Source: Nanobdellota archaeon (lineage in GTDB: Archaea > Nanobdellota > Nanobdellia > Pacearchaeales > GW2011-AR1). Taken from it: a DNA stretch of 64,000 nt. The notes below the pieces were generated by a model. That model was not told the DNA's origin and did not search any database. It saw nothing but the letters and a program-made list of their open reading frames with translations. Position 1 is the first letter of the stretch; each line of letters opens with the position of its first letter. The stretch is from assembly GCA_020053375.1 (NCBI GenBank), contig JAGVNG010000017.1, positions 26,780 to 90,779 of the forward strand. The letters are read 5' to 3'. Position numbers and translations under genes: made by a program. Shown in pieces: positions 5,411 through 58,868 of the stretch.

Positions 5411-5451
5411 CAACACAAATTCTTATAAAATAAGTTTCCTAACATTGTAAA

Positions 5452-5877: not shown

Positions 5878-5908
5878 CTTTTATAAACAGGCTTAATTCT
5901 AAAATAAA

Positions 5909-6223: not shown

Positions 6224-6227
6224 AAAG

Positions 6228-6301
6228 TGGCCCCGATGGGATTTGAACCCACGACACCTGGATTAAAAGTCCAGTGCTCTACCAGACTGAGCTACGGAGC
6301 C
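6228..6301 (-). tRNA. tRNA-Lys (anticodon UUU)
   Basis: Reverse complement folds as GGCTCCG acceptor / GCTC D-stem / CTGGA-CTTTTAA-TCCAG anticodon arm (TTT) / GTGGG-TTCAAAT T-arm; CCA not encoded. Confidence 0.8.
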
Positions 6302-6446
6302 GTAATCCAGTATAAGTTTCATCATTTAAAAAAGCTTTTGTAGGACTTTAATTATATAGGGGAATTTCCCAAGAAATCTCTCCGTTTCTTCAAAACCTCT
6401 TCTCAAACCAAAATTTAGAAAGATTTAAAAACCAAATTTTGGTTTC

Positions 6447-6456
6447 TTTTATTATT
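6447..6456 (+). promoter_or_regulatory. TATA-box-like element upstream of rpoH
   Basis: ttttattatt ~30 nt upstream of the first ATG of rpoH. Confidence 0.2.
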
Positions 6457-6485
6457 AACCAGTTATTAAAGTCATTAACAATTGG

Positions 6486-6722
6486 TTGAAAGCTAAACAC
6501 TTTCCTGCCCAAAAAATGCACATACTCCAGCCAAAACATTCTAAGTTAAACGAAAAAGAGACTAAAGAAGTATTACTAAACTTTAACGTTTCCAAGTCAC
6601 AGCTTCCAAAAATATACTCTACAGACCCTGCTCTGTCCGAGGGATGCATTAGTGGAGACATAATAAAAATAGAAAGAAAAGAAGGAGAAAAGACCTATGT
6701 TTACTATAGGGTTGTAATATAA
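6486..6722 (+). CDS. rpoH: DNA-directed RNA polymerase subunit H (Rpo5); probable true start at 6516
   Basis: C-terminal ...SQLPKIYSTDPAL...GDIIKIERK...YYRVV matches the RpoH/RPB5 C-domain; directly upstream of rpoB. Confidence 0.8.
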   Translation: MKAKHFPAQKMHILQPKHSKLNEKETKEVLLNFNVSKSQLPKIYSTDPALSEGCISGDIIKIERKEGEKTYVYYRVVI

Positions 6723-6763
6723 TTAATATGAAAATTTCAAGTTTCCAAGGAAGTAACTAAACA

Positions 6764-9700
6764 ATGGAAAAAGGACACAAGCATCTTGTTATGAAGAAAT
6801 ATCTCGAAGAGCATTCGCTGGTAGAGTCAAATGTCATTTCTTTCAACAATTTTATTGAAACAAGAATGCAGAAAATCGTCGAGGAAATAGCAGAAACCAT
6901 AAACAACGAGGACTTTGAAATCAAGCTCGGAAAAATAACCATAGGAAAGCCAAAAATAACAGAAGCTGACGGAAGCTCTTCTTTGATAACGCCAACCGAA
7001 GCAAGATTGAGGAGCCTTACATATGCCGCTCCTGTTTACCTTGAAATCAGCGTGAAGAAGGATGACCAGGTTGATTCAGAGACAGTTGAAATTGGGAAGA
7101 TTCCTGTTATGGTGAAAAGCAAGATATGCAATACTCACGAGATGTCAAAAGATGAATTGATTAAAAATTACAATGACCCTCTTGACCCGGGCGGATATTT
7201 TATAATAAAAGGAAATGAAAGGGTGATGGTAATGGCAGAGGACCTTGCCGAAAATCAGTCTTTTGTGGAAACGGACTCAAGGGGCAATTTGATTCTCAAA
7301 ATGTTTTCTCTTAAGGGAACATACAGGATTCCCGTTACAATATTTGAGGACAAGGAAGGCTTGTTCAATCTTTCTTTCAGTCGGTTCAAGGACTTGCCAG
7401 TAGTTGTTATACTCAAGGCGCTCGGACTTACAAAAGAATCAGACATTGCAAAATACATAGGAAAGGAAACGGACAGTGTCGTTGTTAACCTTTATGAATT
7501 TGTCAACATAGCTGAGAAGGAAGATGCCATGATTTACATTGCAGAGAAAACAAATCTTCAAGGAACAAAAAAAGAAATTCTTGACCGGGTCAAGCAAAGG
7601 ATTGACTCCTATCTTTTCCCCCATATTGGCCAGAAAAAGGAAGACAGGATGAAAAAAGCAATAACACTCTGCAAATTAATAAAGCAATTTTTGACTGCAA
7701 AGGAAAATCCCCAATTAAGAACAGACAAGGATCATTATGCAAATAAAAGGGTTAGACTATCAGGTGACCTTTTAGCAACTTTGTTTAGGGTTAATCTTGG
7801 AATTCTTATCAGGGATATACAATATTCCCTTCAGAAATCATCAAAGAGAAGGAAATTCTTTTCAATAAAAATAATAGCAAAATCAACCCTATTCTCGCAC
7901 AGGATTGAATCTGCAATAGCGACGGGAAGCTGGACAGGAGAAAGAAGCGGAATAACCCAAAATATGGACAAGACAAATTATCTTGCAATAATTTCCCAGC
8001 TTCAGAGAGTATCAAGCATGCTTCCTAGCGATCAGGAAAACTTCATGGCAAGAACTCTTCACCCAACACATTATGGAAGATTCTGTCCGATAGAGACGCC
8101 TGAAGGAACAGAAATTGGGCTTAGGAAAAATCTTGCAATTCTCAGCCAGGTGTCAACCAGAATAAATCTCGACGAGGAAAAATTCCTGAAAGACATGGAA
8201 TCAATGGGGCTGGACAAGGAAGGAATAGAGGGAAGAGAGGTATTCTTTAACGGAATATTCATGGGAAGCGTAAAAAATCATATTGATTTTGTGAAAAAAA
8301 TGAGGGAAATGCGAAGAGAGGGAAAACTGCCTTATGCATTAAACATAAGGGATGATGAAAACTTTCAAAATGTTCTTGTTTCAACAGAGCCAGGAAGAGT
8401 ATTGAGGCCTGTCATCATAGTTGAAAATGGGATATCCAAGTTAAAAATAGAGCATCTTGTGCAGCTTGAACAGGGAGAGCTTAAGTGGGACAACCTTATT
8501 GAAAAAGGAATAATAGAATACTTGGATGCAGCAGAAGAGGAAAATTGCCTTGTTGCGATGCATGAGGAAGGAATTACTTCTGAGCACACTCATCTTGAGA
8601 TAGATGCAACAGATGTGTTCGGAGTTGTCACAAGCCTTGTTCCATACGGGAATCATGACCAAAGCTCCAGATTGAACAGGGGAAGCAAGACGCAAAAACA
8701 GGCATTAGGATTATATGCTGCAAACTATTTAACAAGACTCGATACAGATGTAAGCATTCTTCAGTATCCGCAGAAGCCGATTGTAAGAAGCTTTGTATAT
8801 GACACTCTTAATATTTATCCGGCAGGACAAAACCTTACCGTCGCGATAATGACGTACGAGGGATACAATATGGAAGATGCTTTGGTATTCAACAAGGGAA
8901 GCCTTGACAGGGGAGTTGGAAGAAGCTTTTACTTCAGGCCTTATTCAGCTGTTGAAATGAATTATGCCGGTGGCTTGAAAGATGAGATTGCAATACCTGA
9001 AAAAGACGCATCTGGATACAAGACAGAAGCAAACTATAGATTCCTTGAGTCAGACGGAATAATTTATCCAGAAGCAGATGTCGGCGAGGGAGAAGTTTTG
9101 ATTGGAAAGATGTCCCCCCCAAAATTCCTCTCAGAGGCAAGGGAAATCTCCATCAGAACAAAGAAAGAGTCAAGCATTGAGATGAGGCAGGAAGAAAAAG
9201 GAACCGTTGACGCTGTTTTCGTGGCAGAGGATTCAGAGGGCAACAAGATAGTTCATGTGAAAACAAGGGACCAAAGAATTCCTGAGATAGGAGACAAATT
9301 TGCAACCTCGCACGGACAGAAGGGGGTAATAGGAGCAATAATTCCGGAGGAAGATGTTCCTTTCACCTCAAGAGGCATAAGACCTGACGTCATGTTCAAT
9401 CCGCACGGACTTCCAAGCAGAATGACTGTTGGATATTTGCTTGAACTTCTCGCAGGAAAAACTGGAGCTGCCAAAGGAGAAATAATGGATGGAACTTCCT
9501 TCTCGGGGGAAAGCAAGAAGGATTTGGAAGCGCAGCTTGCGGAATTAGGATTTAGATCTGATGGAAAAGAAACGATGTATAATGGAGTAAGCGGAAAGAG
9601 AATGGAAGTCAAGATTTTCGTTGGAAACTTATATTACCTAAAATTGAAGTATATGGTAAGCAACAAAATACACGGAAGAGCGGCAGGAAAGATTGCCTTG

Positions 9701-10021
9701 CTTACACGACAGCCTATAGAGGGAAGGTCACGAGGAGGAGCATTGAGGCTTGGAGAAATGGAGCAGCAAGCGCTTGTAGCGCATGGAGCATCTCTTCTTC
9801 TTAAGGAAAGATATGATTCTGACAAAGTAGTGCTTCACATATGCACAAAGTGCGGGACAATTGCAATAGAAGACAACATACGAAACAGGATATCTTGCCC
9901 AATATGCAACAGCGAAGAAGTTGAACCAGTAGAGGTATCATATGCATTCAAGCTTCTGCTTGAGGAATTGCAGGGACTTCATATTCACACATCACTTAAA
10001 TTGAAGAATAAGTACGAATAA
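6764..10021 (+). CDS. rpoB: DNA-directed RNA polymerase subunit B (unsplit B'/B'')
   Basis: 1085 aa with RNAP second-largest-subunit blocks (GDKFATSHGQKGV, C-terminal CxxC...CxxC zinc ribbon). Confidence 0.95.
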   Translation: MEKGHKHLVMKKYLEEHSLVESNVISFNNFIETRMQKIVEEIAETINNEDFEIKLGKITIGKPKITEADGSSSLITPTEARLRSLTYAAPVYLEISVKKDDQVDSETVEIGKIPVMVKSKICNTHEMSKDELIKNYNDPLDPGGYFIIKGNERVMVMAEDLAENQSFVETDSRGNLILKMFSLKGTYRIPVTIFEDKEGLFNLSFSRFKDLPVVVILKALGLTKESDIAKYIGKETDSVVVNLYEFVNIAEKEDAMIYIAEKTNLQGTKKEILDRVKQRIDSYLFPHIGQKKEDRMKKAITLCKLIKQFLTAKENPQLRTDKDHYANKRVRLSGDLLATLFRVNLGILIRDIQYSLQKSSKRRKFFSIKIIAKSTLFSHRIESAIATGSWTGERSGITQNMDKTNYLAIISQLQRVSSMLPSDQENFMARTLHPTHYGRFCPIETPEGTEIGLRKNLAILSQVSTRINLDEEKFLKDMESMGLDKEGIEGREVFFNGIFMGSVKNHIDFVKKMREMRREGKLPYALNIRDDENFQNVLVSTEPGRVLRPVIIVENGISKLKIEHLVQLEQGELKWDNLIEKGIIEYLDAAEEENCLVAMHEEGITSEHTHLEIDATDVFGVVTSLVPYGNHDQSSRLNRGSKTQKQALGLYAANYLTRLDTDVSILQYPQKPIVRSFVYDTLNIYPAGQNLTVAIMTYEGYNMEDALVFNKGSLDRGVGRSFYFRPYSAVEMNYAGGLKDEIAIPEKDASGYKTEANYRFLESDGIIYPEADVGEGEVLIGKMSPPKFLSEAREISIRTKKESSIEMRQEEKGTVDAVFVAEDSEGNKIVHVKTRDQRIPEIGDKFATSHGQKGVIGAIIPEEDVPFTSRGIRPDVMFNPHGLPSRMTVGYLLELLAGKTGAAKGEIMDGTSFSGESKKDLEAQLAELGFRSDGKETMYNGVSGKRMEVKIFVGNLYYLKLKYMVSNKIHGRAAGKIALLTRQPIEGRSRGGALRLGEMEQQALVAHGASLLLKERYDSDKVVLHICTKCGTIAIEDNIRNRISCPICNSEEVEPVEVSYAFKLLLEELQGLHIHTSLKLKNKYE

Positions 10022-10022
10022 G

Positions 10023-10298
10023 ATGACAGAAGCATACCCCATAATCTTGGAAGCTGGAAATGAAAAAACTTATGAAGAGGTAACTGTGTTCCTTAGAGGC
10101 TTAACTGAAAAGTCTAAGCAGATGGATGGAAAAAAATATTACTTTTTAGATGGTTATACAGTACCTCCAATCAGAACAGACAAGGGTAAAAAGACAATAG
10201 AGCTAACTTTAAGTGTTGATTCAGAAATAATAAGTTTAATCAAACATACTTTAAACATAAAAAATAATAGGGATATCACCAATATATTCAAAAGTTAA
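10023..10298 (+). CDS. Hypothetical 91-aa protein encoded between rpoB and rpoA
   Basis: ATG 2 nt after the rpoB stop and 12 nt before the rpoA start; no recognisable motif. Confidence 0.45.
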   Translation: MTEAYPIILEAGNEKTYEEVTVFLRGLTEKSKQMDGKKYYFLDGYTVPPIRTDKGKKTIELTLSVDSEIISLIKHTLNIKNNRDITNIFKS

Positions 10299-14775: not shown

Positions 14776-15192
14776 ATGACAAGCACAATAAATATGCAGG
14801 ATATTAGATATCTGAACCTGTTTGAAAAAATGACACGTGTTCAGACAAGATACTGCTTCAAATACAACGAGTTTATTATTTTCTGTGTTCCAAAGCATCT
14901 TGTCAGCGCTGCAATCGGCGAGCAGGGGATGAATATCAAAAGAATGAGCGAGATATTGAGAAGAAGAATAAAAGTCATTCCAACCCCAGACGGCGTCGCG
15001 CATCTCAGGCAATTCATAGAGGCAATAATCAGCCCATTAAGATTTAAGGACCTGAGCGTAAATGACAACGAGATAATTCTCACGGCAGGGAGCCAGAGCA
15101 AGGCCGCGTTGATTGGAAGAAACAAGAGAAGGCTTCTTGAAATGCAAAAGATAATGAAGGATTATTTCAACAGAGATTTCAGGATAATTTAA
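14776..15192 (+). CDS. nusA: Archaeal NusA-like transcription termination factor (KH domains)
   Basis: 138 aa with KH-like ...AAIGEQGMNIKRM... motif; conserved position after rpoA. Confidence 0.75.
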   Translation: MTSTINMQDIRYLNLFEKMTRVQTRYCFKYNEFIIFCVPKHLVSAAIGEQGMNIKRMSEILRRRIKVIPTPDGVAHLRQFIEAIISPLRFKDLSVNDNEIILTAGSQSKAALIGRNKRRLLEMQKIMKDYFNRDFRII

Positions 15193-21676: not shown

Positions 21677-21952
21677 ATGAAAGAAAAAAAATATTTTTTG
21701 GATGTTGTAATCAACAAAGAGAAACTTAGCGATGGAAAGGATGTATTTGTGGTTGTATGTCCAAGTCTTGATGTCGCAAGCCAGGGGATGAATGTTGAAG
21801 AAGCCATGAAAAACATAAGAGAAGCTGTTGAACTTTACCTTGAAGAAATGCCTGAGGCTTATGAAGAACTTGATATTACAAGAAAGGAAATACCCACATT
21901 TTCTTTTATTGAGGTAAAAAAACATGGCAAAGTTGCCAATATTGTCAGGTAG
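21677..21952 (+). CDS. hicB: HicB-like antitoxin
   Basis: VVCPSLDVASQGMNVEEAMKNIREAVELYLEE matches the HicB/UPF0150 core; overlaps hicA by 29 nt. Confidence 0.7.
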   Translation: MKEKKYFLDVVINKEKLSDGKDVFVVVCPSLDVASQGMNVEEAMKNIREAVELYLEEMPEAYEELDITRKEIPTFSFIEVKKHGKVANIVR

Positions 21953-22151
21953 AGACCTTGCAAAGATTCTTTCCCGATTAGATTATGTGCATATCAGAAC
22001 ACATGGAAGTCATATGATTCTTGTTAAACAAACTGAAAAGGGAAAGAAGACAATTCCTGTTCCAAATCATAAAGAACTTGCTAAAGGAACGCTAAAGGCG
22101 ATAATGAACCAAGTGGGTTTAAAATTAGATGATTTATTAAACCTGTTATAA
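21924..22151 (+). CDS. hicA: HicA mRNA-interferase toxin
   Basis: ...SRLDYVHIRTHGSHMILV...IPVPNHKELAKGTLKAIMNQVGL matches the HicA consensus. Confidence 0.8.
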   Translation: MAKLPILSGRDLAKILSRLDYVHIRTHGSHMILVKQTEKGKKTIPVPNHKELAKGTLKAIMNQVGLKLDDLLNLL

Positions 22152-23400: not shown

Positions 23401-24684
23401 ATGGCAAGAGAAAAACCAAATATGAACATCGTGTTCGTCGGGCACGTTGACGCTGGAAAGTCAACCATAATCGGAAGATTGCTTTTCGACACTGGCGCTG
23501 TTTCTGAAATGGAAATGAAGAAGTTGAGAGAGGAAGCGGAAAAGCACGGAAAAGTCGGATTCGAATTTGCATACGTAATGGACAAGATTAAAGAGGAAAG
23601 AGAAAGAGGGGTTACAATTGATCTTTCTTACAGAAAGGTAATGACATCAAAATATCAGGTGACAATAATCGACGCGCCTGGGCACAGAGACTTTGTAAAA
23701 AACATGATAACTGGGGCTTCACAGGCTGATGCAGCCTTTTTGGTTATCGCTGCGCAATCTGGAGTTCAACCACAAACAAAGGAACACCTATGGCTATTAA
23801 GGACAATGGGAGTAAGAAATGTTTGTGTTGCCATCAATAAGATGGACGAAATAAAATACGATGAGGCAAAATTCAACAAAGTTAAAGAAGATGTTTCTAT
23901 TCTTTTGAAAACAGTCGGATTAAAACTTGAGAATATTACATTCATTGCGTGCTCTGGATTAAAGGGAGATAATGTTGCTAAAAAAAGCACAACTATGTCA
24001 TGGTACAAGGGACCAACAATATTGGAGCAGTTTGACTTGTTCCCTCAGCCAGAACTGCCTACAAATCTTCCATTGAGAATGCCTGTGCAAGATGTTTATG
24101 AAATAACCGGTATCGGGACAGTCCCTGTAGGAAAGATTGAGACAGGAACAATGAAGCCCGGACTAAAAATAAAAATACTTCCTGGAAGAACAGGAGACGG
24201 TGTTGATGGTGAAATTAAAACGATAGAAATGCATCATGAAGCGCTTCCCGAGGCAAGGGCAGGAGATAATGTTGGATTGAACATAAGAGGAATTGGAAAG
24301 AAGGACATCGCAAGGGGAGATGTGATTTGCGACGCTGCATTCCCTGTTCCTGTTGTAAAAGAATTTATCGCACAGATAGCTGTAATTGACCACCCTACTG
24401 TTTTGGCCAAGGGATACACCCCCGTATTCCACATTCACACAGCGCAGGTTCCTTGCCAGTTTATTGAATTAATAGAGCAGATAGATTCAAAGACAGGACA
24501 AGTCATAAAGAAAAACCCTGATTTCTTGAGAAACGGGGATGTTGCAAAGGTAAGGATAAAGCCGCAGGGAAATCTCTGCCTTGAAACACAGAAGGACAAC
24601 CCGCATATGTCAGGATTTGCAGTAAGAGATGCAGGACAAACAGTTGCAGCAGGAATCTGCATTGAAATAACACAGAAGAAGTAA
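23401..24684 (+). CDS. tuf: Elongation factor 1-alpha (aEF-1alpha)
   Basis: [32 protein letters not shown] motifs; 427 aa. Confidence 0.95.
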
Positions 24685-24685
24685 G
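24643..24685. repeat. Direct repeat copy 1: last 43 nt of tuf including stop codon
   Basis: Matches 25437..25479 at 42/43 positions. Confidence 0.9.
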
Positions 24686-24689
24686 AAGG

Positions 24690-24696
24690 TTTTTTG
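24690..24696 (+). terminator. Oligo-T tract after tuf (archaeal terminator-like)
   Basis: TTTTTTG 6 nt after the stop codon. Confidence 0.25.
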
Positions 24697-24775
24697 ATTC
24701 TTAGATTTTTGGATATTTTTAATAACTAACTGTAAAAATAGAAAAGCTTAAATATGTGTAAACACATAAATATTT

Positions 24776-25009
24776 ATGGCAAATATAACATTGTCTGTTC
24801 CGGAAGAATTAATGAAAAAAATGAAATTGTTCAGGGAAATAAGATGGAGTGAGGTAGCTAGACGCTCAATAGAGGAAAGAATTGCTGATTTAGAAACCAT
24901 GAACAAAATCGCTTCTAAGAGCAAGTTGACGAAAGAAGATGTTGAAGAGATTGGGAAAAGGATAAAAAGCAGAATGACTAAAACATTCTATGAACACGAT
25001 AGCAATTGA
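24776..25009 (+). CDS. vapB: VapB-like antitoxin (ribbon-helix-helix/CopG-like)
   Basis: 77 aa, MANITLSVPEELMKKMK...WSEVARRSIEERI pattern; overlaps PIN gene by 20 nt. Confidence 0.55.
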   Translation: MANITLSVPEELMKKMKLFREIRWSEVARRSIEERIADLETMNKIASKSKLTKEDVEEIGKRIKSRMTKTFYEHDSN

Positions 25010-25415
25010 TACAAACGTCATAATTTCTGCTCTTCTTAAGGAAGGAATAACAAGAAAGATATTATTAGATTACAAATTCAATTTCATATTCCCTGAATAT
25101 GGTTTAAAAGAAATTTATTTTTATAGAGACTATGTAATAAAGAAATCTGGAATAAAAGATTCTGAATTTGATGTGTTAATGTTAAGATTATTTAAATATG
25201 TAAAATTAGTTCCTCTGCATATTATTAAAAAATTTAGAAAACGTGCAGATGAAATAATGAAAAAAATAGATAAGAAAGATACGGTATTTATTGCAACATC
25301 TCTAGCTTTTAAATGTCCAATTTGGTCTGATGACAGACATTTCAAATTACGAAAAGAAATTAAAGTATATAATACCCAAGAATTCATAAATCTTATGCTC
25401 GATAAGCCAAGATAA
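24990..25415 (+). CDS. vapC: VapC PIN-domain toxin
   Basis: IAIDTNVIISAL (first acidic residue), later FIATSL and WSDDRHF acidic positions of a PIN domain. Confidence 0.75.
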   Translation: MNTIAIDTNVIISALLKEGITRKILLDYKFNFIFPEYGLKEIYFYRDYVIKKSGIKDSEFDVLMLRLFKYVKLVPLHIIKKFRKRADEIMKKIDKKDTVFIATSLAFKCPIWSDDRHFKLRKEIKVYNTQEFINLMLDKPR

Positions 25416-25436
25416 AAATTATTACCATCTATAAAT

Positions 25437-25479
25437 GTTGCAGCAGGAATCTGCATTGAAATAACGCAGAAGAAGTAAG
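25437..25479. repeat. Direct repeat copy 2 of the tuf 3' terminus
   Basis: gttgcagcaggaatctgcattgaaataacGcagaagaagtaag; single A->G difference (24672 vs 25466) is synonymous in the tuf frame. Confidence 0.9.
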
Positions 25480-25505: not shown

Positions 25506-25916
25506 TTATAATTTAATATTTAAAGATTCGTAAAGAGTTGCCTGTACTTCATCGATAAAAAAATACTCAAAAAAATTATGATTAAATTGATTTTTATAGA
25601 TATGATATAATTCATGCTTTAAAGTTGCCCTATTTCTACCTAAATCATCCAAAATAATTTTATAATGACCATCTGGTAGTTTTGTAGATGACCCTGTTCC
25701 TAAACTTGCTTTGCCAAATCTTGCTGAAATCTTTTTATTATTTAAATTAAGTTTAGAAGATTCTTCTATCAATATATTCTCTAATTGTTTTTCGTCTTTT
25801 ATTTTTTCTGACAAAAGAATAGATGCACCCCCAAGACCTAATCTCAGCAGATAGAAGGTTAATCCTACCCTCCAAATTCCCTTCCAAATTTTCTCAATTA
25901 ATTCTATTTTTGTCAT
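25506..25916 (-). CDS. Hypothetical protein with HExxH motif (possible zincin-like)
   Basis: HELYH motif near C-terminus; N-terminal hydrophobic segment. Confidence 0.35.
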   Translation of the reverse strand: MTKIELIEKIWKGIWRVGLTFYLLRLGLGGASILLSEKIKDEKQLENILIEESSKLNLNNKKISARFGKASLGTGSSTKLPDGHYKIILDDLGRNRATLKHELYHIYKNQFNHNFFEYFFIDEVQATLYESLNIKL

Positions 25917-25943
25917 TTTAAATTAAATGTGAATTTAGTTCTC

Positions 25944-26669
25944 CTATAAAGTAAAGATATGATTTTGAAACCATAAATGTTCTTTTTCTAGGGGTATTAG
26001 TATCTCTTTTGCAATTCCTTTCATTTCCTTTTTTATTAACTCATTTCTTTCATTTTCACTTAAATTTTTCTTTTTAGCAATAGCTTCCAAAGTATCCCCA
26101 TGTGGAACCTCTAATATATACAAGGCATCTCCTTTATTGTAAGAACGAACTGTTTGAATCAGCTTTTTGTAAACTTCCCATTCTTTTATCGCAAATTCAC
26201 CTGGATTAATATTTCTGCCATAACATAATCCACTTCCCAAGAGACTTTTTGCTATTACCACATCTTTATTTCCAAATAATCTTTCTCCCTCTTCTTGTGT
26301 AACAGACTCAAGACCAGAATCAAGATCAAATTCAACATAATTAAACCCACGACTTCTTGGTTCGTGGGATTCATATGGGCTATCAATTCCTGTTACATTT
26401 GCACCCATATAACTCAAAGTTTCTGCAACAATAGGAGCATAACTATCTCCACTTCCACATCCCAAGTCAAGTATCTTTAATCCTTTTATTGAGCCACCAT
26501 ATAAGTGAACTAATCTAACAATTTGATCTAATGGGCGAAAAATACCTGCATTTGGATTAGAATATCCTTTTACTCTCTTCTCACCCTCTTTTATAGCTGA
26601 AGCTATTTTTTCTATTAAACCATTTTCAAAATTTCGTTTTGAATTTTCTCTTAGTTGATTAATATCCAT
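25944..26669 (-). CDS. Class I SAM-dependent methyltransferase
   Basis: ILDLGCGSGDS motif I and a downstream acidic motif II. Confidence 0.7.
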   Translation of the reverse strand: MDINQLRENSKRNFENGLIEKIASAIKEGEKRVKGYSNPNAGIFRPLDQIVRLVHLYGGSIKGLKILDLGCGSGDSYAPIVAETLSYMGANVTGIDSPYESHEPRSRGFNYVEFDLDSGLESVTQEEGERLFGNKDVVIAKSLLGSGLCYGRNINPGEFAIKEWEVYKKLIQTVRSYNKGDALYILEVPHGDTLEAIAKKKNLSENERNELIKKEMKGIAKEILIPLEKEHLWFQNHIFTL

Positions 26670-26845: not shown

Positions 26846-27406
26846 ATGCTTAAACGAGGGATGTCAAAGTCAGAAATTGAAAAAGAACTGCAGGGCAAGG
26901 GGGACTTTGTCCAGATTGATCACCTTGGTGTTTTTCTGAAGGAAGACCTTCCTACAGATATAAGGAAGTTTGCCATGGAAAAAATGGCAGGGATTTACGA
27001 GAAAAAGATGATGTTTGGCGAAGCAGCAAAGATTTACAACAATCTTTCCATAATTTCAATACCTTTCAAGGAGAAAATGAAATATCATGTCAAAGAAGCT
27101 GAATTATGCATAAAAGGCGGACTTTTAAGGGAAGCGGATTATGCAACACAAAAAGCAATAAGCCAGGCAAACACATTCGAGAAAAATGACATAATGTTCA
27201 GCATAAAGCAATTTTATAAAAAACAGGCGGAAGTCTTTGAAAAAGAGATTAGAAGAAATAATGCAGCTAGACTATATGAAAAACTTCTTGAGCTTTCCAC
27301 CACAGAAGCTGAAAAAAGAGAAGTTCGGGAAAAACTCATGGGGCTTTATGAGAAGCTTGGGAAATTCAGAGAATATAATGTATTGAAGGGTATGAATGGG
27401 AATTAA
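26846..27406 (+). CDS. Hypothetical helical protein
   Basis: 186-aa ORF, repetitive helical character. Confidence 0.4.
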   Translation: MLKRGMSKSEIEKELQGKGDFVQIDHLGVFLKEDLPTDIRKFAMEKMAGIYEKKMMFGEAAKIYNNLSIISIPFKEKMKYHVKEAELCIKGGLLREADYATQKAISQANTFEKNDIMFSIKQFYKKQAEVFEKEIRRNNAARLYEKLLELSTTEAEKREVREKLMGLYEKLGKFREYNVLKGMNGN

Positions 27407-29197: not shown

Positions 29198-30373
29198 ATG
29201 GCAAAAATAAGTCCTGTATCTATCAAGTATATGATACATGCAAACTTCAGTGCAGAAGGGGCACTCGAAAAGCCTGATGTAATCGGAGCTCTATTCGGCC
29301 AGACAGAAGGACTGCTTGGCTCTGAGCTCGAAATGAGGGAATTGCAGAAAGAAGGAAAAATAGGAAGAATAGAGGTGGAATTGCAGAGAAGCGATAGAAA
29401 AACCACCGGAATAATCAAGATTCCCACGGCTCTTGATCAGTCTGAAACCACTTTAATTGCGGCTGCCGTTGAGACCATCGAAAGAATAGGCCCAAGCGAC
29501 GCGCAGATAGAAGTGGAGAGGATTGAGGACGTAAGAGGAAGCAAGAGAGATTACATTATAGAAAGGGCTAAAAAACTGATGGGAGAAATCAAGGGTTCTG
29601 CCGACTCAAGGGAAATTTCAAATCAGATAAAGGATTCTGCAAAGACATCCGATGTCATCGAGTACGGGAATGAAAAACTTCCTGCAGGCGACTTGTCTGG
29701 AAATGAGATAATTGTAGTTGAAGGAAGAGCAGACGTTCTGAATCTTATCAGAAGCGGAGTAAGAAACGTAATAGCAATGAACGGGACAAAGCTTCCTGAA
29801 TCCATTAAGGAATTAAGCAAGGAGAAAGATATAACCTTGTTTGTTGATGGTGACAGGGGCGGAGAACTGATTGTTAGGAACGTTGTTGACAATGCCAGAA
29901 TAAAAGACATTGTGGTTGCTCCTGATGGAAAAGAAGTTGAAGAGCTGACTGGAAAAGAGATATTAATGAATTTGAGGAGAAGGATTCCTGTTGAGGAATT
30001 TTTTTCCAAGAGGAGATATCCCTCCCGGGCTCCTAATTATGGATATGAAAGGCAATCAAGACATGAAGAACCAAAAGAACATATTACTGAAATAAAGAGC
30101 GGTGATGAAGAAAAGCTAAAGAAAATATTCAAGGAAAATGAAGGAAGCGAAAAGACAGTGATACTTGACAAAAATATGAATGAAATAAAAAAGGTATCAA
30201 CAAAGAGCGCTGCTGGCTCATTGAAAAGACTAGACAAAGTTCCTTATGCACTGGCAATTGATGGCACATTGACAAATCATCTTTTGAAGGATGCAGAGGA
30301 AGCAGGATGTCAGATTATAATAGCAAAGAATTTCGCAACAACTGACACCAAGATAAAATTGATTAGTGTGTAA
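29198..30373 (+). CDS. dnaG: Archaeal DnaG primase (TOPRIM)
   Basis: N-terminal ...KYMIHANFSAEGALEKPDVIGALFGQTEGLLG... diagnostic of archaeal DnaG; TOPRIM EGRADVLNL...DGDRGG. Confidence 0.85.
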   Translation: MAKISPVSIKYMIHANFSAEGALEKPDVIGALFGQTEGLLGSELEMRELQKEGKIGRIEVELQRSDRKTTGIIKIPTALDQSETTLIAAAVETIERIGPSDAQIEVERIEDVRGSKRDYIIERAKKLMGEIKGSADSREISNQIKDSAKTSDVIEYGNEKLPAGDLSGNEIIVVEGRADVLNLIRSGVRNVIAMNGTKLPESIKELSKEKDITLFVDGDRGGELIVRNVVDNARIKDIVVAPDGKEVEELTGKEILMNLRRRIPVEEFFSKRRYPSRAPNYGYERQSRHEEPKEHITEIKSGDEEKLKKIFKENEGSEKTVILDKNMNEIKKVSTKSAAGSLKRLDKVPYALAIDGTLTNHLLKDAEEAGCQIIIAKNFATTDTKIKLISV

Positions 30374-30376
30374 TTA

Positions 30377-30952
30377 TTAACTAAAAAATTTGTTTAAGAT
30401 TTCTCTTGTTAAATCCAACGATTCGTCGCAGAAATCTTTAAGATTTCTTGAGGAACTATCTTTAAAGCAAATATTTTTCACGGTTTTTCCTTTTTTCTTT
30501 ACAGAAGAAACCGCTGGAACAAAATCTCCATCTCCAGAAACAACAATGGAGATATCAAAATTATTATCATAGGCATTTTCAACCATATCAACTGCCATAT
30601 GTATATCGTCTTCTTTTATTATATAATAGAATTTGTCTGTTCCAGTTATATTCCTTTTAAGCAATTTACACAAAACAAGATGTAGATTTGGAATTTTCTT
30701 TAGTTTTTCGAAGAATTCCCTTTGACTTCTATATTTTTCCTGATTATGCTCTTTATCAAGCAACGCATTATAATAATAAATATCCACAACTTTATCTTTT
30801 CCAGCTAAAAATTTGGAGAATCTTTCAAAATCAAAATCCTTTAAACTTTTACCCTTACCATATAATTTTCTTAACCCAAAATAAAAATTATTCCCATCTA
30901 TAAAAACAGCAACCCTCTCCATTTTAAAAGTGCTCATCCCTTGCCGAAGCAA
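30377..30952 (-). CDS. NYN-domain (LabA-like) protein
   Basis: VAVFIDGNNFYFG N-terminal motif and downstream acidic residues of the NYN/LabA fold. Confidence 0.65.
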   Translation of the reverse strand: MLRQGMSTFKMERVAVFIDGNNFYFGLRKLYGKGKSLKDFDFERFSKFLAGKDKVVDIYYYNALLDKEHNQEKYRSQREFFEKLKKIPNLHLVLCKLLKRNITGTDKFYYIIKEDDIHMAVDMVENAYDNNFDISIVVSGDGDFVPAVSSVKKKGKTVKNICFKDSSSRNLKDFCDESLDLTREILNKFFS

Positions 30953-31027
30953 GGATGAGCGTATATGCTTATAACATAACCTTGAAGCTTTTAATACTTT
31001 CGGCGATAATCAATATAAATATAAATC

Positions 31028-31492
31028 TTGGATAGTTGGGATCTCAAAATGCTCAATATAAGAAAAACGAATATTAACGATTTTAAACAATTATATAGTT
31101 TGGGATTGAAAACTCCTGAATTAAAAGTTAATAAAAAAGATTCTTTTATGGACAGGGATGATTTTAAATTAAGAATATTGGATAAAAAACATATTTTTCT
31201 GGTTGCTGAAGAAGATAAAAAAATCGCAGGTTTTATATGTGCAAGTGCAAAGGATATTGAAAGGCCATTAAAAAACAAATATGCATGTCTTGTTTACATC
31301 GCTGTTTTGCCAGAATACAGAAAGAGGGGGATAGCAACCAAATTATATAATGAGTGTGTTAAAAAATTAAAGAGAAGAGGCATAACCCATATTTATGCAT
31401 GGGCTGACATGAAAAGCGGAATAATAAATTTTTTGAAGAAGAGGGGATTTGATGAGGGAAAACCATCGGTATGGATGGATAGAAAACTATAA
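31028..31492 (+). CDS. GNAT-family N-acetyltransferase
   Basis: RKRGIATKLYNECVKKLKRRG acetyl-CoA-binding motif A. Confidence 0.7.
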   Translation: MDSWDLKMLNIRKTNINDFKQLYSLGLKTPELKVNKKDSFMDRDDFKLRILDKKHIFLVAEEDKKIAGFICASAKDIERPLKNKYACLVYIAVLPEYRKRGIATKLYNECVKKLKRRGITHIYAWADMKSGIINFLKKRGFDEGKPSVWMDRKL

Positions 31493-38838: not shown

Positions 38839-39735
38839 ATGAATAAACAAAGTAATAAAGGATATAAAAACATAAGTTATCATAAACCAAAAGAATGTCC
38901 TTATTGTAAGAACAAGAACATTGTTAAGTTTGGATATAGATATAATTGCACGAAGAAAAAGCAACGTTGGAAATGTAAAGATTGTTTTAAACTCTGGGTT
39001 ATAGAAGATGGTTTTTGGAAGATGAAAAAGACAAGAGAGTTGATAACTCAATGTTTAAATTTGTATATGAACGGAATGTCTTTAAGGAAAGTTGCAAGGC
39101 ATATCAATCAATTTTCAGAAGTAAAGACGACTTATAGAAGCGTTCATAATTGGTTAATGAAGTATAGTTTTATGCTTAATCCTTTTTCTCAAACAATAGA
39201 TTATGATTTATCAAGAGTTTATCATGTTGATGAGATTTTTGTTAAGTGTAAGGGTGAACAACATTACTTTTGGGATATTATAGACAGAGATACAAGAGTT
39301 TTAGTTGCTAATCACTACTCAACTAAAAGAGATGGCAGGAGTGCAAGAACATTATTCTTGAAAGTCAAAAATCCACCAATGAGATTATTTTCTGATGGCT
39401 TGCAAGGATATAGAAAAGCATTTAGAAAAGTTTGGGGGCAGAAAACAAGAAGGCAGGATAGATTAATCTACACAAGATTAAAGCAAAGCCAAGATAGAAG
39501 AAATAACATAGTTGAAAGAATACAAGGAACAATCAGAGAAAGAGTAAAGGTTATGCGGGGATTTAAGGCAATTTGGAGTGCTAAAGCATTTCTTGAATTG
39601 TTTGCAGTCTATTATAACTTCTTGCGTTATCACGAAGGTATAGATAGCACACCAATAGAAAAAGCAGGAATTAACCTTAATCTCGAAGGCAACCAATGGC
39701 TAAATCTGATTTATAGGAGTAAGGGAATATTTTAA
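38839..39735 (+). mobile_element. IS6-family transposase gene with N-terminal zinc finger (IS ends not resolved)
   Basis: CPYCKN...CTKKKQRWKCKDC zinc finger, DDE-type core, C-terminal RNNIVERIQGTIRERVKVMRGFKAIWSAKAFLELF block characteristic of IS6/IS26-family transposases. Confidence 0.7.
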
Positions 39736-46987: not shown

Positions 46988-47818
46988 TTATTTTTTAATA
47001 TCACTCGTCTTCTTTGAGTTAAGATAAAGCTTATCCAAAATTCCCTTTAAAATTTTCCTATGCTCCTCATTTCCCAAGCCCTTCCAGTCAAGAAGAACAA
47101 AATCAATTTCTTCCTCTGTTTTTTGTATTGCTTCCTTGACCATCTCCTCTGTCAGCGGAAAAACATATTGGGATATAACATGAGAGATTGCAATATTTGA
47201 AGATGCCTGAATCTTATTGAAATTGGGGCAGTAATGAGGACCTCCAATCGCTATTACAACTTCATTGTAAGGATTTGGCTTGAACTCTTCTATGGCTTCT
47301 GATATTGCCTTCGCAACCACAAAACCTGCTTTGTTATCCCTCCATTCATTTTCTGTCGAGCCTATTTCTGCAAAAAGGCACGGCTTGTCTATTAAAGGAC
47401 CATGATGAGTTGCTTCCATTGTCAAATCATAATCACGAAGATGATATTTTTCAGCATTCTCAATCAGTTTTTCAAACAATTGCTTCTGAAACATTGCAGA
47501 TGTCCTGCATAACTTGCCTTTTTCTCCGCCAAACCTTGCCTCTCTGAAATTTCCGGGTGCATGGACTGTAAGAGACTTTTCTCCTTTTTCGGACTCGTGC
47601 TTTGAGGCAAAGATTATGAAGTCATATTGATTTATCCGGTCTAAGTCAAGGCTGCGGGTCTGGATTATTTCATCTTCAACCAGATAAAAATCAAATGAAG
47701 GAGTTTTTTTTAATGATGAGAAGAGAGGGTTTTCTCTGAACTGGCTTAACTGGGTGGTTATGTTTATTCCAGCCCTGTCTTTCTTGCTTGCAACTACAAG
47801 ATATTTTTCATATGACAT
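46988..47818 (-). CDS. dtdA: Archaeal-type D-aminoacyl-tRNA deacylase (DtdA)
   Basis: EATHHGP, IGGPHYCP and DWKG blocks match the archaeal DTD family; 276 aa. Confidence 0.8.
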   Translation of the reverse strand: MSYEKYLVVASKKDRAGINITTQLSQFRENPLFSSLKKTPSFDFYLVEDEIIQTRSLDLDRINQYDFIIFASKHESEKGEKSLTVHAPGNFREARFGGEKGKLCRTSAMFQKQLFEKLIENAEKYHLRDYDLTMEATHHGPLIDKPCLFAEIGSTENEWRDNKAGFVVAKAISEAIEEFKPNPYNEVVIAIGGPHYCPNFNKIQASSNIAISHVISQYVFPLTEEMVKEAIQKTEEEIDFVLLDWKGLGNEEHRKILKGILDKLYLNSKKTSDIKK

Positions 47819-56170: not shown

Positions 56171-56271
56171 GCGGGTGTGCCGGAGTGGTCAAACGGACAG
56201 CCCTTAAGAGCTAGAGAGCTAAGTGAGGCTGTGGCTTAGTGCCTGCGAAGGTTCGAACCCTTCCATCCGCA
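56171..56271 (+). tRNA. tRNA-Leu (anticodon UAA) with ~17-nt intron after the anticodon loop
   Basis: GCGGGTG acceptor, 3-bp D-stem CCG/CGG, CAGCC-CTTAAGA then a ~17-nt insert before the matching GGCTG strand, long variable arm, GAAGG-TTCGAAC-CCTTC T-arm, CATCCGC-A 3' end. Confidence 0.6.
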
Positions 56272-56897: not shown

Positions 56898-57614
56898 ATG
56901 AACATAAAGAAGATAGACATCTTGATTCTGGTCTTTCTTGTTCTTGCAGTTCTCTCTTTGAATTATTCTCCTATTGATTCTTTTCTTGAGCAGGCTTTTT
57001 CGTCAAGGCAGGAAGTTCTTGTTGAAAGGGTAATAGATGGAGACACTGTTGAATCAGACATAGGAAACATAAGGCTTTTAGGAATTAACACTCCCGAGAG
57101 AGGAGAAATTTATTATGAGGGGGCAAAGAAGTTTCTTGAATCAAGGATTTTTAATAAAACAGTTGAACTTGAATTCGGAAAAGACAAGCGGGACAAATAT
57201 AACAGAACACTTGCTTATCTTTTTCTTGACGGGAAAAACATAAATATTGAGATAGTGAAAAATGGTTTCGCTAATTATTATTTTTATGGCGGAAGAGACA
57301 AATATTCAAGTGATTTGGAGAATGCATGGACAATTTGCGTTAATAATAAAATAAATCTATGCGAACCTTCAGCAAATCAATGTTCATCCTGCATAATTAT
57401 TAAGGATTCCGGCGCTTTAAAAAATATCTGCGGTTTTTCGTGCAACATAACTGGATGGAAAATAAAAGCAGAAGGGAGAAACAACACGATTTTTCAAAGT
57501 GAAATCCTGAACAGCGGAGAAGAAGTTTTATTTAAGCTTGAGCTGATAGGAACAGGAGACACAATCTTTTTGCGGGACAGGGAGGGAAAACTGGCGCTTT
57601 GGAAGAAATATTGA
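56898..57614 (+). CDS. Thermonuclease (SNase-like) family protein with N-terminal signal/anchor and Cys-rich C-terminal domain
   Basis: VERVIDGDTVESDIGNIRLLGINTPE...KDKRDKYNRTLAYLFLDGKNINIEIVKNGFA matches the staphylococcal-nuclease fold. Confidence 0.7.
   Translation: MNIKKIDILILVFLVLAVLSLNYSPIDSFLEQAFSSRQEVLVERVIDGDTVESDIGNIRLLGINTPERGEIYYEGAKKFLESRIFNKTVELEFGKDKRDKYNRTLAYLFLDGKNINIEIVKNGFANYYFYGGRDKYSSDLENAWTICVNNKINLCEPSANQCSSCIIIKDSGALKNICGFSCNITGWKIKAEGRNNTIFQSEILNSGEEVLFKLELIGTGDTIFLRDREGKLALWKKY
57585..57612. repeat. Direct repeat copy 1: last 28 nt of the thermonuclease gene
   Basis: ggaaaactggcgctttggaagaaatatt; matches 58841..58868 except a synonymous third-position a/g. Confidence 0.85.
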
Positions 57615-57634
57615 GAGCAGAAAATTCAGCAGTT

Positions 57635-58123
57635 TTATTTCAGCATATTCTTTATATGTGAGACAAAAAGGGTAGCATTATGCATTGAATCCTCAGCGGG
57701 ATCCTTATTTGCTTGCGGAAAAGTCTTGTATGTGAATTTCCCCCTTTTTGATTTTTCATCCTTCATTATTTGCAGTAAATCTTCTGCCCTTATTAGCATT
57801 TTTTCATAAGCTTCCAGAATATGCTTGTCTAATTTTCCGCTGCCTACAAATATCCTCTTGAATTCATCATATGCTTTATTATGAATGAATGGAGCAGAGA
57901 TTTTTATTCCTGCGTTCAATAAAGCAGCCCTTGCAGAATAAAAGAGGGAATAATAAGAATGGTTTATGACTGAACTGTAAAATGTTGTTTTTGCGGGAAC
58001 AGCCAGATTATTCTTTAAAACGTCTTCTTCGCTTATTCGTTTTAGGGCCTTGGCTGCAAGAAGTTCATTATCTGCCCTCTCCAATAAAAATTTAACCTCT
58101 GAATCCATGTTTAATTGCCTCAT
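57635..58123 (-). CDS. HEPN-domain protein (toxin component of HEPN/MNT pair)
   Basis: ...NHSYYSLFYSARAALLNAGIKISAPFIHNKAYDEF... resembles the HEPN helical core; overlaps the MNT gene by 32 nt. Confidence 0.5.
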   Translation of the reverse strand: MRQLNMDSEVKFLLERADNELLAAKALKRISEEDVLKNNLAVPAKTTFYSSVINHSYYSLFYSARAALLNAGIKISAPFIHNKAYDEFKRIFVGSGKLDKHILEAYEKMLIRAEDLLQIMKDEKSKRGKFTYKTFPQANKDPAEDSMHNATLFVSHIKNMLK

Positions 58124-58718
58124 TTATTATTGCATAATATTGTGAGCCACCATAGAATATAAGATTATGCCTTACAGATTCCTTACTGTAATTTTCTTCT
58201 TCATCCAAGAGCATATCTAAAAATTGCTTGCTTGTAAAAACATAAGGATGAACTGGGGGGATGCTTGTCTCGCTTTCATGGCTTATTTGGGCATAGATGC
58301 TCTTGGGATTAACTTTATCATCACAAATAACAGCAATATCCAAATCAGATTCTTTATTTTGGGTTTTCTTAGCATAACTTCCTGTAAGCAGGAGAATAAA
58401 AAATTTGGTTGGAATTTTGTTTCTTATATTTTCTATAATCTGCAGGGGAATCTGCTTTTGATTCCAAGAAATATACTCATGCAAAAATCCCATATAGCTT
58501 TGTGCAGAAACTGAAGACAGATTAAGAATGTAAAGAATAGACTTGCCTACTTTTTCGGTAACAATAATCTTTTCTTTTTCCAGCCTTTTCAAGGCGCTAT
58601 AAATATATCCCTTTGAGCGATTTTTAGTTATTTTTTGGATTTCAGAATATGTTAATTTCTTCCAAGGTTCTTTTAAAAAAGCCGAATCAATATGGTATTG
58701 TTCTTTTAGTATTTCCAT
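58092..58718 (-). CDS. Minimal nucleotidyltransferase (MNT) with N-terminal winged helix
   Basis: LLLTGSYAKKTQNKESDLDIAVI = GS...D.D Pol-beta-type NTase motif; N-terminal wHTH. Confidence 0.7.
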   Translation of the reverse strand: MEILKEQYHIDSAFLKEPWKKLTYSEIQKITKNRSKGYIYSALKRLEKEKIIVTEKVGKSILYILNLSSVSAQSYMGFLHEYISWNQKQIPLQIIENIRNKIPTKFFILLLTGSYAKKTQNKESDLDIAVICDDKVNPKSIYAQISHESETSIPPVHPYVFTSKQFLDMLLDEEENYSKESVRHNLIFYGGSQYYAIINEAIKHGFRG

Positions 58719-58840
58719 CTTAAAGTCTATATACTTATAAGTCCTATTTTATAGACTATATAGTCCTATATTATAGACTTTAAATAACTTTCGTTCTTAA
58801 GCTTGCTCAAAAAATCTGATTTTTCATAAGTGGGATATGG

Positions 58841-58868
58841 GGGAAACTGGCGCTTTGGAAGAAATATT
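58841..58868. repeat. Direct repeat copy 2 of the thermonuclease 3' terminus
   Basis: gggaaactggcgctttggaagaaatatt followed by TAG; still reads GKLALWKKY-stop. Confidence 0.85.

Follow-up and report, generated by a model that had tools for sequence, protein, structure and literature searches.

How did a toxin-antitoxin module come to lie directly behind tuf, the EF-1alpha gene, between two copies of that gene's own 3′ end? We addressed this question in a 64-kb stretch of DNA (the window) and in relatives with related structures. The source is a small groundwater archaeon.

The tuf tail and the insert behind it

The tuf gene (23401..24684, plus strand) is intact and encodes 427 amino acids with the Pfam domains GTP_EFTU, D2, D3 and GTP-eEF1A_C. 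Its functional last 13 codons, the TAA stop and one G make up a 43-mer at 24643-24685 (plus strand), GTTGCAGCAGGAATCTGCATTGAAATAACACAGAAGAAGTAAG, which recurs with one mismatch at 25437-25479 on the same strand. This second copy, a displaced and non-functional tuf tail, still encodes the same 13 C-terminal residues followed by the stop codon. The sole mismatch, A at 24672 and G at 25466, gives ACA in one copy and ACG in the other, both Thr codons. No further copy of the 43-mer was found elsewhere in the 64 kb. The preliminary description had tied the repeat to an inserted cassette, and this is borne out; no such repeat arose in any of 100 dinucleotide shuffles. It had also argued that a silent difference excludes target duplication; that argument does not hold, since a duplication followed by one substitution would also fit. 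At its left junction copy 2 is joined as CTATAAAT to GTTGCAG, and at its right junction as GTAAG to TGGACCC. The sequence beyond it, which would be expected directly behind tuf at an empty site, is GAAGAAGTAAGTGGACCCTTGG.

The 751 bases between the copies are composite, consisting of an intact vapB/PIN-vapC module and a 33-nt antisense remnant of an NYN-nuclease gene. The left end (24686..24745, plus strand) carries a T-tract (GGTTTTTT) and the vapB upstream region, and is homologous to the vapB upstream region behind tuf in the relative L108. The GGTTTT after the tuf stop, also found in L081 and L084, may serve as the tuf terminator. At 24746..24768 (plus strand) a promoter-like box, TTAAATA, overlaps the palindrome TATGTGT-AA-ACACATA, read from the sequence as the presumed VapB operator; box and palindrome are conserved in L090, L091 and L108. 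The vapB-like antitoxin gene (24776..25009, plus strand; 77 amino acids) overlaps vapC by 20 nt, as it does in homologues. Homologous 77-aa proteins are annotated as Pfam RHH_12, and the window's own 77-aa ORF gave no Pfam match (hmmscan, E <= 0.01). The vapC toxin gene (24990..25415, plus strand; 141 amino acids) matched Pfam PIN_2 with an E value of 1.6e-24, and the acidic residues D7, E41, D97 and D115 were invariant across eight aligned homologues. Its closest homologues (71-77%) are located upstream of dtdA; the window's own dtdA has no vapBC module upstream. We infer an addiction module with toxin-antitoxin activity, made up of a putative PIN RNase and a putative RHH antitoxin.

The NYN remnant (25403..25435, minus strand) retains the codons FIDGNNFYLGL, and read in antisense it provides the final vapC codons together with the stop codon. 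Of its 33 bases, 30 agree with the window's own NYN gene (30872-30904) and 32 with the NYN gene of the relative L097, where the chance expectation is zero. It adjoins copy 2 and had been missed before, so that the vapBC module described between the tails is present without being the clean cassette it was taken for.

Beyond copy 2, two lineage-specific genes (25506..26669, minus strand), one of 136 aa and one methyltransferase-like of 241 aa, fill the rest of a variable gap; no homologues of either were found beside tuf in 80 related loci. The gap ends at a TPR-like gene (26846..27406) that, like dnaG, is syntenic in relatives. The absence of rps10 behind tuf had been pointed out before. In relatives tuf is followed by the TPR-like gene and/or dnaG, and the absence is, to judge from these gene orders, a lineage trait and not a consequence of insertion. 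Retention of copy 2 as a promoter or terminator of its neighbours was considered and rejected, since no signal was convincing and the window's neighbouring gene is convergent. A scan for sigma-70 promoters and terminators was uninformative because the host is an archaeon, and an Rfam scan of the window returned only tRNAs.

Pfam scans of 40 window ORFs found no integrase, as had been stated before, and the only mobility gene was an IS240-family transposase 13 kb away. The genes of the insert are limited to vapB, vapC and the 33-nt NYN remnant; there is no transposase inside it and there are no inverted repeats at its ends. Nor was an integrase or transposase found in the other tail-flanked cassettes described below.

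Tail duplications in relatives and at other genes

The EF-1alpha protein of the window is 97% identical to that of the sister genome L081 and 84% identical to that of the nearest species-level genome. L081 has the same tail repeat with the same left boundary (GTTGCAG) and an intact NYN gene as its cargo, and the order tuf then NYN was present in four independent assemblies. Copy 2 of the window, together with the next three nucleotides (ending TAAGTGG), is identical to the end of L081 tuf. Copy 2 of L081 encodes VAAGLCTEITQKK followed by a stop, which is the C-terminus of real EF-1alpha proteins in relatives; it carries the tuf allele GLCT, not GICI. The suggestion that a second copy can be the real tuf end of another allele is therefore borne out in L081. 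L081 has G in both tail copies at the site equivalent to 24672/25466, so that the A in the functional tuf of the window is most simply read as a later synonymous change. L108, in which vapB stands behind tuf and has a homologous upstream region, likewise has A at this site.

Tail duplication behind tuf was absent from 80 species-level relatives and from relatives at 87-91%; L082-L089 and the 80 species-level loci each have a single tuf tail, with differing genes downstream. When gaps were allowed, the search gave only a weak candidate for a decayed copy in L108 (z 3.5) and a doubtful candidate in L002. The cluster tables (NCBI, JGI) list no strain-level relatives and show the EF-1alpha of the window on a single contig. 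An empty site at strain level was not found either: in no relative does the sequence that follows 25479 lie directly behind tuf, and we thus infer the polarity of the insertion.

At 4-fold sites the window and L081 have diverged by 0.28-0.44. For a pair of tails inherited unchanged from the split of these genomes, the probability of showing no more than one change would be ~0.001. The window's pair is thus young or homogenised.

The window holds a second tail duplication (57584..58868, plus strand). An SNase-like gene (56898..57614) has its last 29 nt repeated at 58840-58868, and the two copies enclose a HEPN gene (57635..58123, minus strand) and a nucleotidyltransferase (MNT) gene (58092..58718, minus strand). 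The two tails have one synonymous difference, and the stop is TGA in one and TAG in the other. The second copy was compared with the C-termini of orthologues: its core 29 nt fit the conserved motif and its left extension does not (FFISGIW against FLRDxxG), this apparent extension being spurious or decayed. The SNase-tail allele comparison does not discriminate between models.

An intact NYN cassette lies behind dnaG in the window (30377..30972, minus strand), with an ORF (30380-30922; Pfam NYN, E 1.5e-26), a promoter region and a leader hairpin (30932-30960) whose conservation extends to four lineages. The NYN cassette enclosed by the tuf tails of L081 shares 85% identity with this one. At other sites the tails that flank the NYN cassette come from whichever gene is local: dnaG in L097 (36 nt) and rpoA' in L100, where the cassette lies within an array of four tail copies that separate three cassettes. 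The left extension of the rpoA' tail (TTTTAG) was tried as an rpoA' allele and is not one. L100 also has a hicBA pair between two tails of a 276-aa gene. This duplication spans at least 130 nt, and the second tail is a mosaic that preserves the ORF and includes the terminator. The ends of the NYN cassette are near-identical at three target genes, a hint of a discrete mobile unit that falls outside the explanation we favour below.

The tails of at least five different genes are duplicated in this lineage, over lengths of 29 to ~270 nt, and all inserts measure 0.6-1.6 kb. Short-range direct repeats outnumber inverted ones by 63 to 4 in the 1.28 Mb counted. Tail duplications with diverged copies were reproduced in independent assemblies of other samples. 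Across six loci, 11 of 18 differences between tail copies were synonymous and seven non-synonymous, against a random expectation of 21% synonymous (P = 3e-4), and every displaced tail retained its in-frame stop. The synonymous bias and the retained stops indicate that the differences arose within functional gene copies. Judged from these sequences, gene-tail duplication around a small selfish cassette looks like a general and poorly understood route of gene insertion.

Explanations for the duplicated tail

Our preferred reading, to which we give a probability of about one half, is insertion with long target duplication, without an integrase and at a hot spot for cassettes, where recombination between the tails would keep the copies alike and let the cargo change. 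It starts from the observed anatomy of the locus, its recurrence in relatives, the absence of an integrase, the selection signature of the tails and the finding that the window's pair is young. A cassette would have inserted into the extreme 3′ end of tuf so that the last 43 bases came to stand on both sides of it, which leaves tuf intact with copy 1 and a non-functional tail, copy 2, downstream. Host recombination and repair would presumably have carried this out, with no integrase or transposase encoded by the element. The stretch from tuf to the next conserved gene would be a hot spot with turnover of cargo, in which an older NYN cassette, intact in L081, was mostly replaced by vapBC, presumably in that order, with 33 nt of NYN left. 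Homologous recombination between the tails, by gene conversion or by a cassette circle popping out and re-entering, would keep the copies near-identical and preserve the boundaries across genomes. Addiction to VapBC would favour retention of the insert. Since both tails are still able to code, tail-to-tail recombination could also remove the insert cleanly.

Some observations are at odds with this reading. Illegitimate events that were random and independent would not be expected to give the window and L081, whose pairs differ in age, the same boundaries; shared ancestry with homogenisation, or a site-defined process, would be needed. Nor does random deletion account for the NYN remnant stopping within 1 nt of copy 2, which would have to be a coincidence.

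A bolder form of this reading, which we hold only tentatively, is an integrase-free, integron-like system of gene capture in Pacearchaeota. The last 30-45 nt of conserved genes, many of them essential, would be reusable sites at which toxin-antitoxin and nuclease cassettes are inserted one after another, passed between related genomes and excised with precision by the homologous recombination of the host. If so, one would expect repeat-cassette arrays, such as the four rpoA' tails of L100, and fossil tails recording older alleles. The tails themselves do not resemble attC sites: there is no consistent hairpin, and four of five tail sequences have no folding advantage over shuffled ones (z -0.74 to +0.93). 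Read as its reverse complement, the tuf tail folds somewhat better than its shuffles (z -2.2, -5 kcal/mol), but it has a length of only 43 nt and no R''/R' cores. The window also lacks an integrase of the IntI kind that would lie, with attI, beside an integron array.

The preliminary description had proposed a Campbell-type single crossover, by which a non-replicating circle, made of the 43-nt tuf tail, vapBC and the NYN remnant, recombined with the resident tail. We consider this rather unlikely as the origin of the locus. Copies 1 and 2 would be hybrids of donor and recipient, and the circle would itself have arisen by tail-to-tail recombination in a structure of this kind that existed before, in this genome or a related one. 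Its junction would run from the NYN remnant through the tail to AAGGTTTT, in letters CCATCTATAAAT, the tail and AAGGTTTTTTGATTC. Such a step accounts for the same boundaries in two genomes whose cargo and ages differ, and for the hybrid copy 2 of L081, with the GLCT allele in its left half and a right half identical to its own tuf. The A shared with L108 at 24672 and the related left ends of the cassettes in the window, L081 and L108 also agree with it. The crossover requires a pre-existing duplicated structure, however, and so leaves unexplained the first insertions (at dnaG, rpoA' and others) and the duplications of 130-270 nt. The window offers a single SNP as marker, which one transition explains equally well, and scans of viral contigs with tail patterns revealed no circle or extrachromosomal copy. 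Campbell integration is plausible as one step, but not as the source of structures behind new genes.

Displacement of the 3′ end by homology-facilitated illegitimate recombination is less likely still. Here tuf-vapBC DNA from a relative would have been anchored inside tuf and its far end joined 43 nt before the end of the resident gene, making copy 1 the donor's and copy 2 the resident's. The tails do look allelic, the EF-1alpha proteins of relatives look mosaic in their C-terminal third, vapB stands behind tuf in L108, and the second hicBA tail of L100 is the ORF-preserving mosaic with terminator noted above. An analogous model has been published for T6SS and Rhs orphan arrays (PMC5361080). 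Yet tuf of the window shows no recombination breakpoint relative to L081, divergence being uniform at 8-13% along the gene, and copy 2 lacks the GGTTTT tract found after the tuf stop elsewhere. Two independent illegitimate joins at exactly the same position of tuf, in the window and in L081, would also be improbable.

The repeat has the size and position of an att site: archaeal integrative elements typically have att sites of 43-45 nt that overlap the 3′ end of a gene. A plasmid or virus with an integrase might thus have integrated at the end of tuf and been whittled down by deletions to vapBC and two att copies; toxin-antitoxin modules would be expected to outlast such decay, and identical boundaries in two genomes would follow. 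We judge this very improbable. No recombinase remains in the insert or among the 40 window ORFs, and the tuf tail, searched with exact and degenerate patterns, had no match in 2.9 million viral contigs; the single metagenome match was chromosomal. Inserts are only 0.6-1.6 kb. Because the same architecture involves the tails of many genes, at least five, with lengths from 29 to ~270 nt and a different local tail around the NYN cassette at each site, the attP/attB-like event raised in the preliminary description is unlikely.

Scarcely credible is an assembly artefact, a chimeric contig joining two strain variants through their shared tuf end: metagenome assemblers can mis-join at repeats, the contig is present in one assembly only, and L094, a contig of the L081 family, ends exactly where copy 2 starts, but the left junction of copy 2 (NYN remnant to GTTGCAG) has no k-mer in common with the sequence upstream of copy 1 and so must be present in reads, one base distinguishes the copies, and analogous diverged duplications are seen in independent assemblies of other samples.

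Comparison with known systems

To our knowledge, DPANN archaea have tiny genomes with few recognisable mobile elements and no genetic system, and little is known of how they gain accessory genes. Tail duplication around 0.6-1.6-kb toxin-antitoxin or nuclease cassettes, sometimes in arrays and with no integrase, offers a repeatable footprint of such gain. Several sites of one NYN cassette, allelic fossil tails and arrays provide natural material for the study of its mechanism. Displaced tails preserve older alleles of essential genes, and metagenome assemblies can break at them.

Archaeal viruses and plasmids that target tRNA genes, and casposons at the 3′ ends of tRNA or EF-2 genes, likewise use att sites at gene 3′ ends. 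They share with our locus a direct repeat of ~40-50 nt at the 3′ end of a conserved gene that is kept intact. Unlike them, the inserts described here are shorter than 2 kb and have no integrase or Cas1 and no terminal inverted repeats, and the target genes are many, with variable duplication lengths.

Sequential C-terminal displacement arrays (Rhs, CDI) were reportedly described by Jackson and colleagues in 2009. In these and in T6SS arrays, as here, modules are added beside a conserved gene and older 3′ pieces are orphaned downstream. What is displaced there is a variable toxin domain together with its immunity gene, and the displacement serves a function, whereas here it is only the last 29-45 nt of a housekeeping gene, and the cargo is unrelated to that gene. 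For the effector-immunity arrays of the Vibrio T6SS, the route proposed needs no integrase and combines a homology anchor with an illegitimate join (Kirchberger et al. 2017, PMC5361080).

Archaeal integron arrays commonly carry small toxin-antitoxin and acetyltransferase cassettes, often promoter-bearing (Ghaly et al. 2022, PMC9668308). Serial cassettes separated by a repeated site are common to both, and the L100 array looks similar. The repeats in our case are tails of the neighbouring gene instead of attC hairpins, differ from locus to locus and are accompanied by no IntI. A ParDE-like pair in Microcystis aeruginosa lies behind an orthocaspase gene between 152-bp direct repeats (PMC7935541) and so resembles our locus, a toxin-antitoxin pair directly behind an unrelated gene between long direct repeats. 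Those repeats begin 14 bp after the stop and contain inverted repeats, however, and are not copies of a coding tail.

Insertion with long target duplication was described for restriction-modification (RM) units (Nobusato et al. 2000, Gene 259:99; Furuta, Abe and Kobayashi 2010, PMC2853133). These units, in bacteria, have no integrase or transposase, and their direct repeats of more than 30 bp are duplications of a single-copy target that often span the stop or start of a gene, as do the 46-bp repeats of Haemophilus influenzae at the 3′ ends of genes; the duplications are long, vary in length and have no established mechanism in the published cases (PMC2853133). Our 43-nt repeat exceeds 30 bp, the tuf tail is single-copy in the 80 species-level loci and L082-L089, and the insert contains no mobile-element gene. 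Both situations thus combine a small selfish unit, long direct repeats at a gene end and no integrase. The cargo here consists of toxin-antitoxin modules and the NYN nuclease instead of RM genes, and the targets include the essential genes tuf, dnaG and rpoA'. The host is a DPANN archaeon, where the RM screen left no archaeal case (PMC2853133). Tail arrays, a signature of coding selection and the same boundaries in two genomes further set the present loci apart. On the reading we prefer, long target duplication would extend from bacterial RM genes to archaeal toxin-antitoxin cassettes.

The tuf-tail repeat and the DNA it encloses

The host is a Pacearchaeota/Woesearchaeota (DPANN) archaeon, with an EF-1alpha identity of 84% to the nearest species-level genome. 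The last 13 codons of its tuf gene (23401..24684; full EF-1alpha domain set), the TAA stop and one further G (copy 1, 24643-24685) recur at 25437-25479 (copy 2) with a single mismatch. This mismatch, A at 24672 and G at 25466, is ACA versus ACG, both Thr; copy 2 thus encodes the unchanged 13 residues and then a stop. The repeat and its one silent difference were confirmed as first described, and no third copy of the 43-mer was found in the window and none in 100 shuffles. GGTTTT follows copy 1 and is missing 3′ of copy 2.

The vapB-vapC pair reported between the copies was also confirmed. The vapB-like gene is a 77-aa ORF (24776..25009) with homologues annotated RHH_12, overlapping by 20 nt the ORF of vapC (24990..25415; 141 aa; PIN_2, E 1.6e-24), in which the PIN-domain catalytic acidic residues are conserved. 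Just 5′ of vapB, a TTAAATA promoter-like box overlaps the palindrome TATGTGT-AA-ACACATA; both are kept in relatives. The preliminary description, which took the insert for a plain vapBC cassette, overlooked an antisense fragment of an NYN-nuclease gene at 25403-25435 (codons FIDGNNFYLGL) that spans the final codons and stop of vapC and ends at most 1 nt from copy 2. It is identical at 30/33 bases to the NYN gene that the window has behind dnaG (30872-30904) and at 32/33 bases to that of lineage L097, where the chance expectation is zero. The insert is thus a composite of vapBC and NYN-derived sequence.

The closest VapC homologues (71-77% identity) are paired with a 77-aa RHH gene directly upstream of dtdA, their module and dtdA having overlapping stop and start codons. 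The window is homologous to these modules from the promoter to about 25395 (alignment A2), and vapBC is absent upstream of its own dtdA (46988..47818). In a 1135-nt contig, L108, vapB is also found behind tuf, so the arrangement is not confined to the present genome. By eye, its EF-1alpha is ~91% and its VapB ~84% identical to those of the window; the sequence upstream of its vapB shows homology to window 24693-24775. The 55 nt 3′ of its tuf stop (L108 870-925), common to L108 and the L097 tuf downstream region, may hold a decayed tuf-tail copy with the same start boundary (z 3.5 vs shuffles).

The tuf region in relatives and in a sister genome

In relatives, the gene order is rpoB, rpoA, S12, S7, EF-2, tuf, and then a TPR-like gene and/or dnaG, both syntenic in the window (26846..27406 and 29198..30373). 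In this lineage tuf is not followed by rps10, and the lack of rps10 pointed out in the preliminary description does not result from the insertion. The proposed comparison of tuf downstream regions gave single tails in the 80 species-level loci (repeat in 0/80, and in none of the 87-91% relatives). The gap 3′ of tuf holds a different set of small genes in each genome.

Several other features were seen in this region. At 21677-22151, between EF-2 and a conserved 234-aa gene, a hicB-like ORF and HicA form another small TA insertion, missing there in the sister genome; a tail duplication was looked for at this site and none was detected. In a 91% relative (L082, 2150-2183), tuf appears to run past the usual stop (AAG AAA GTA ATT... 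vs AAG AAG TAA) into a short C-terminal extension. In L001, a 125-nt GC-rich repeat (9586-9710 and 14787-14911; 97% identical) flanks the tuf-to-dnaG block and may represent a structured or MITE-like element.

The sole metagenome match to the tail pattern was the sister genome L081, from Hainich groundwater (EF-1alpha 97% identical; nucleotide identity 90.6% in tuf and 87% in EF-2). There, an intact minus-strand NYN gene comes after tuf, and beyond it lies the other tuf tail (5210-5254); the left boundary of the repeat, GTTGCAG, is identical to that in the window (alignment A1). The tuf-NYN arrangement was seen in four independent assemblies, with one contig ending exactly at the start of copy 2. 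The two L081 copies differ at five clustered positions; copy 2 encodes VAAGLCTEITQKK and a stop, a C-terminus that actual EF-1alpha proteins of relatives carry (L084, L097, P0191 and others). The suggestion that a second copy may be the 3′ end of an orthologous tuf is thus supported in L081. The window's copy 2 with 3 nt downstream is identical to the L081 tuf end, and the variable base is G in both L081 copies; the A of the window's functional tuf would most simply be a later synonymous change.

Over six loci, codon differences between tail copies were 11 synonymous and 7 non-synonymous (random expectation, 21% synonymous; P = 3e-4), and every displaced tail retained its in-frame stop. The differences therefore arose in functional genes, whether orthologues or the live gene once the tail had been duplicated. 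At 4-fold sites, the window and L081 have diverged by 0.28 (tuf) to 0.44 (EF-2). Were the window's pair as old as their split, finding ≤1 change across 56 neutral positions would carry P ~0.001, so the pair is younger than the split or has been homogenised. Among EF-1alpha proteins of the window's cluster, the two members of each of the pairs P0196/P0199 and P0198/P0200 agree exactly along most of the protein and switch alleles in the C-terminal third, which suggests recombination breakpoints within tuf among related lineages.

Gene-tail duplications at other loci

Duplicated gene tails are a general pattern. In three lineages, the NYN cassette (promoter, conserved leader hairpin and ORF) lies between duplicate tails of a local gene, and its ends are nearly identical at the three target genes. 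The tail is a 45-nt tuf tail in L081; in L097, a 36-nt dnaG tail pair encloses a GNAT gene and NYN. In L100, four rpoA′ tails (4711, 5883, 6586, 8185) divide three cassettes in an array (4711-8446): three small ORFs; NYN; and a 227-aa ORF with an MNT-like gene. The tail alleles pair as 1+2 and 3+4; tails 3 and 4 and the ~230 nt that follow them are duplicates at 98%. The leader hairpin (window 30932-30960; 12-bp stem, GCTCATCCCTTGC CGAA GCAAGGATGAGC) recurs in L081, L097 and L100, where only the loop has changed, and could be a regulatory element or RNase target. Right of the window's NYN cassette, 31009-31044 is possibly a strongly decayed dnaG tail (about 50-58% identity); the NYN/GNAT order behind dnaG is swapped relative to L097.

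Also in L100, hicBA is enclosed by the duplicated last 55 nt and terminator hairpin of a 276-aa gene (9205-9330 and 9974-10090), the second tail being a mosaic copy with reading frame, stop and terminator intact. A further example in the window is an SNase-like gene (56898..57614) whose last 29 nt (57584-57612) are repeated at 58840-58868, enclosing a HEPN gene (57635..58123) and a nucleotidyltransferase gene (58092..58718), both on the minus strand. These copies differ by a single synonymous change and in the stop codon, TGA versus TAG. A census over 1.28 Mb found 63 short-range direct repeats against 4 inverted; about eight of the 63 were clean gene-tail cases, and many were paralogous or tandem repeats of coding sequence. 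Gene-tail duplications were seen again in independent assemblies.

In contrast to the gene-tail cases, tRNA-like segments in L056 (14186-14270 and 18964-19048; 42 + 28 nt, 100% identical), duplicated 4.8 kb apart, represent a classical integrated element. A 101-nt tRNA in the window (56171-56271), called by Rfam and not reported by ARAGORN, probably contains an intron.

Possible origins and known analogues

The boundaries are the same in the window and L081, whereas cargo and age differ, and remnants are shared between the cargoes; for this reason, we propose that recombination between the two tuf tails is ongoing, either as gene conversion or through a cassette circle that pops out and re-enters. 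The Campbell-type integration proposed in the preliminary description fits this tail-to-tail step, but explains neither the first insertions behind new genes nor duplications of 130-270 nt. The other early proposal, an attP/attB-like event of an integrase-borne element, is unlikely in view of the many different target genes, the variable duplication lengths and the different local tail that one NYN cassette bears at each site. As noted from the start, there is no integrase nearby: none was found in the 40 window ORFs scanned, in which an IS240/IS6-family DDE transposase gene (38839..39735) was the only recognisable mobility gene. No consistent hairpin was found in the tails. An assembly artefact is unlikely, with unique junctions, two non-identical copies and analogous structures reproduced elsewhere; the tuf-tail/vapBC structure is real and non-trivial.

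In its anatomy, the structure corresponds to "insertion with long target duplication", described for bacterial restriction-modification units, with an unsolved mechanism; those cases include 46-bp repeats across gene 3′ ends, and 0 archaeal cases passed the screen (PMC2853133). A second analogue of gene-tail structures is provided by orphan arrays, attributed to sequential displacement via homology-facilitated illegitimate recombination (PMC5361080). This kind of insertion is already known; unlike in the restriction-modification insertions, the host here is archaeal, the cargo is TA or nuclease genes and arrays are formed, and these features are new.
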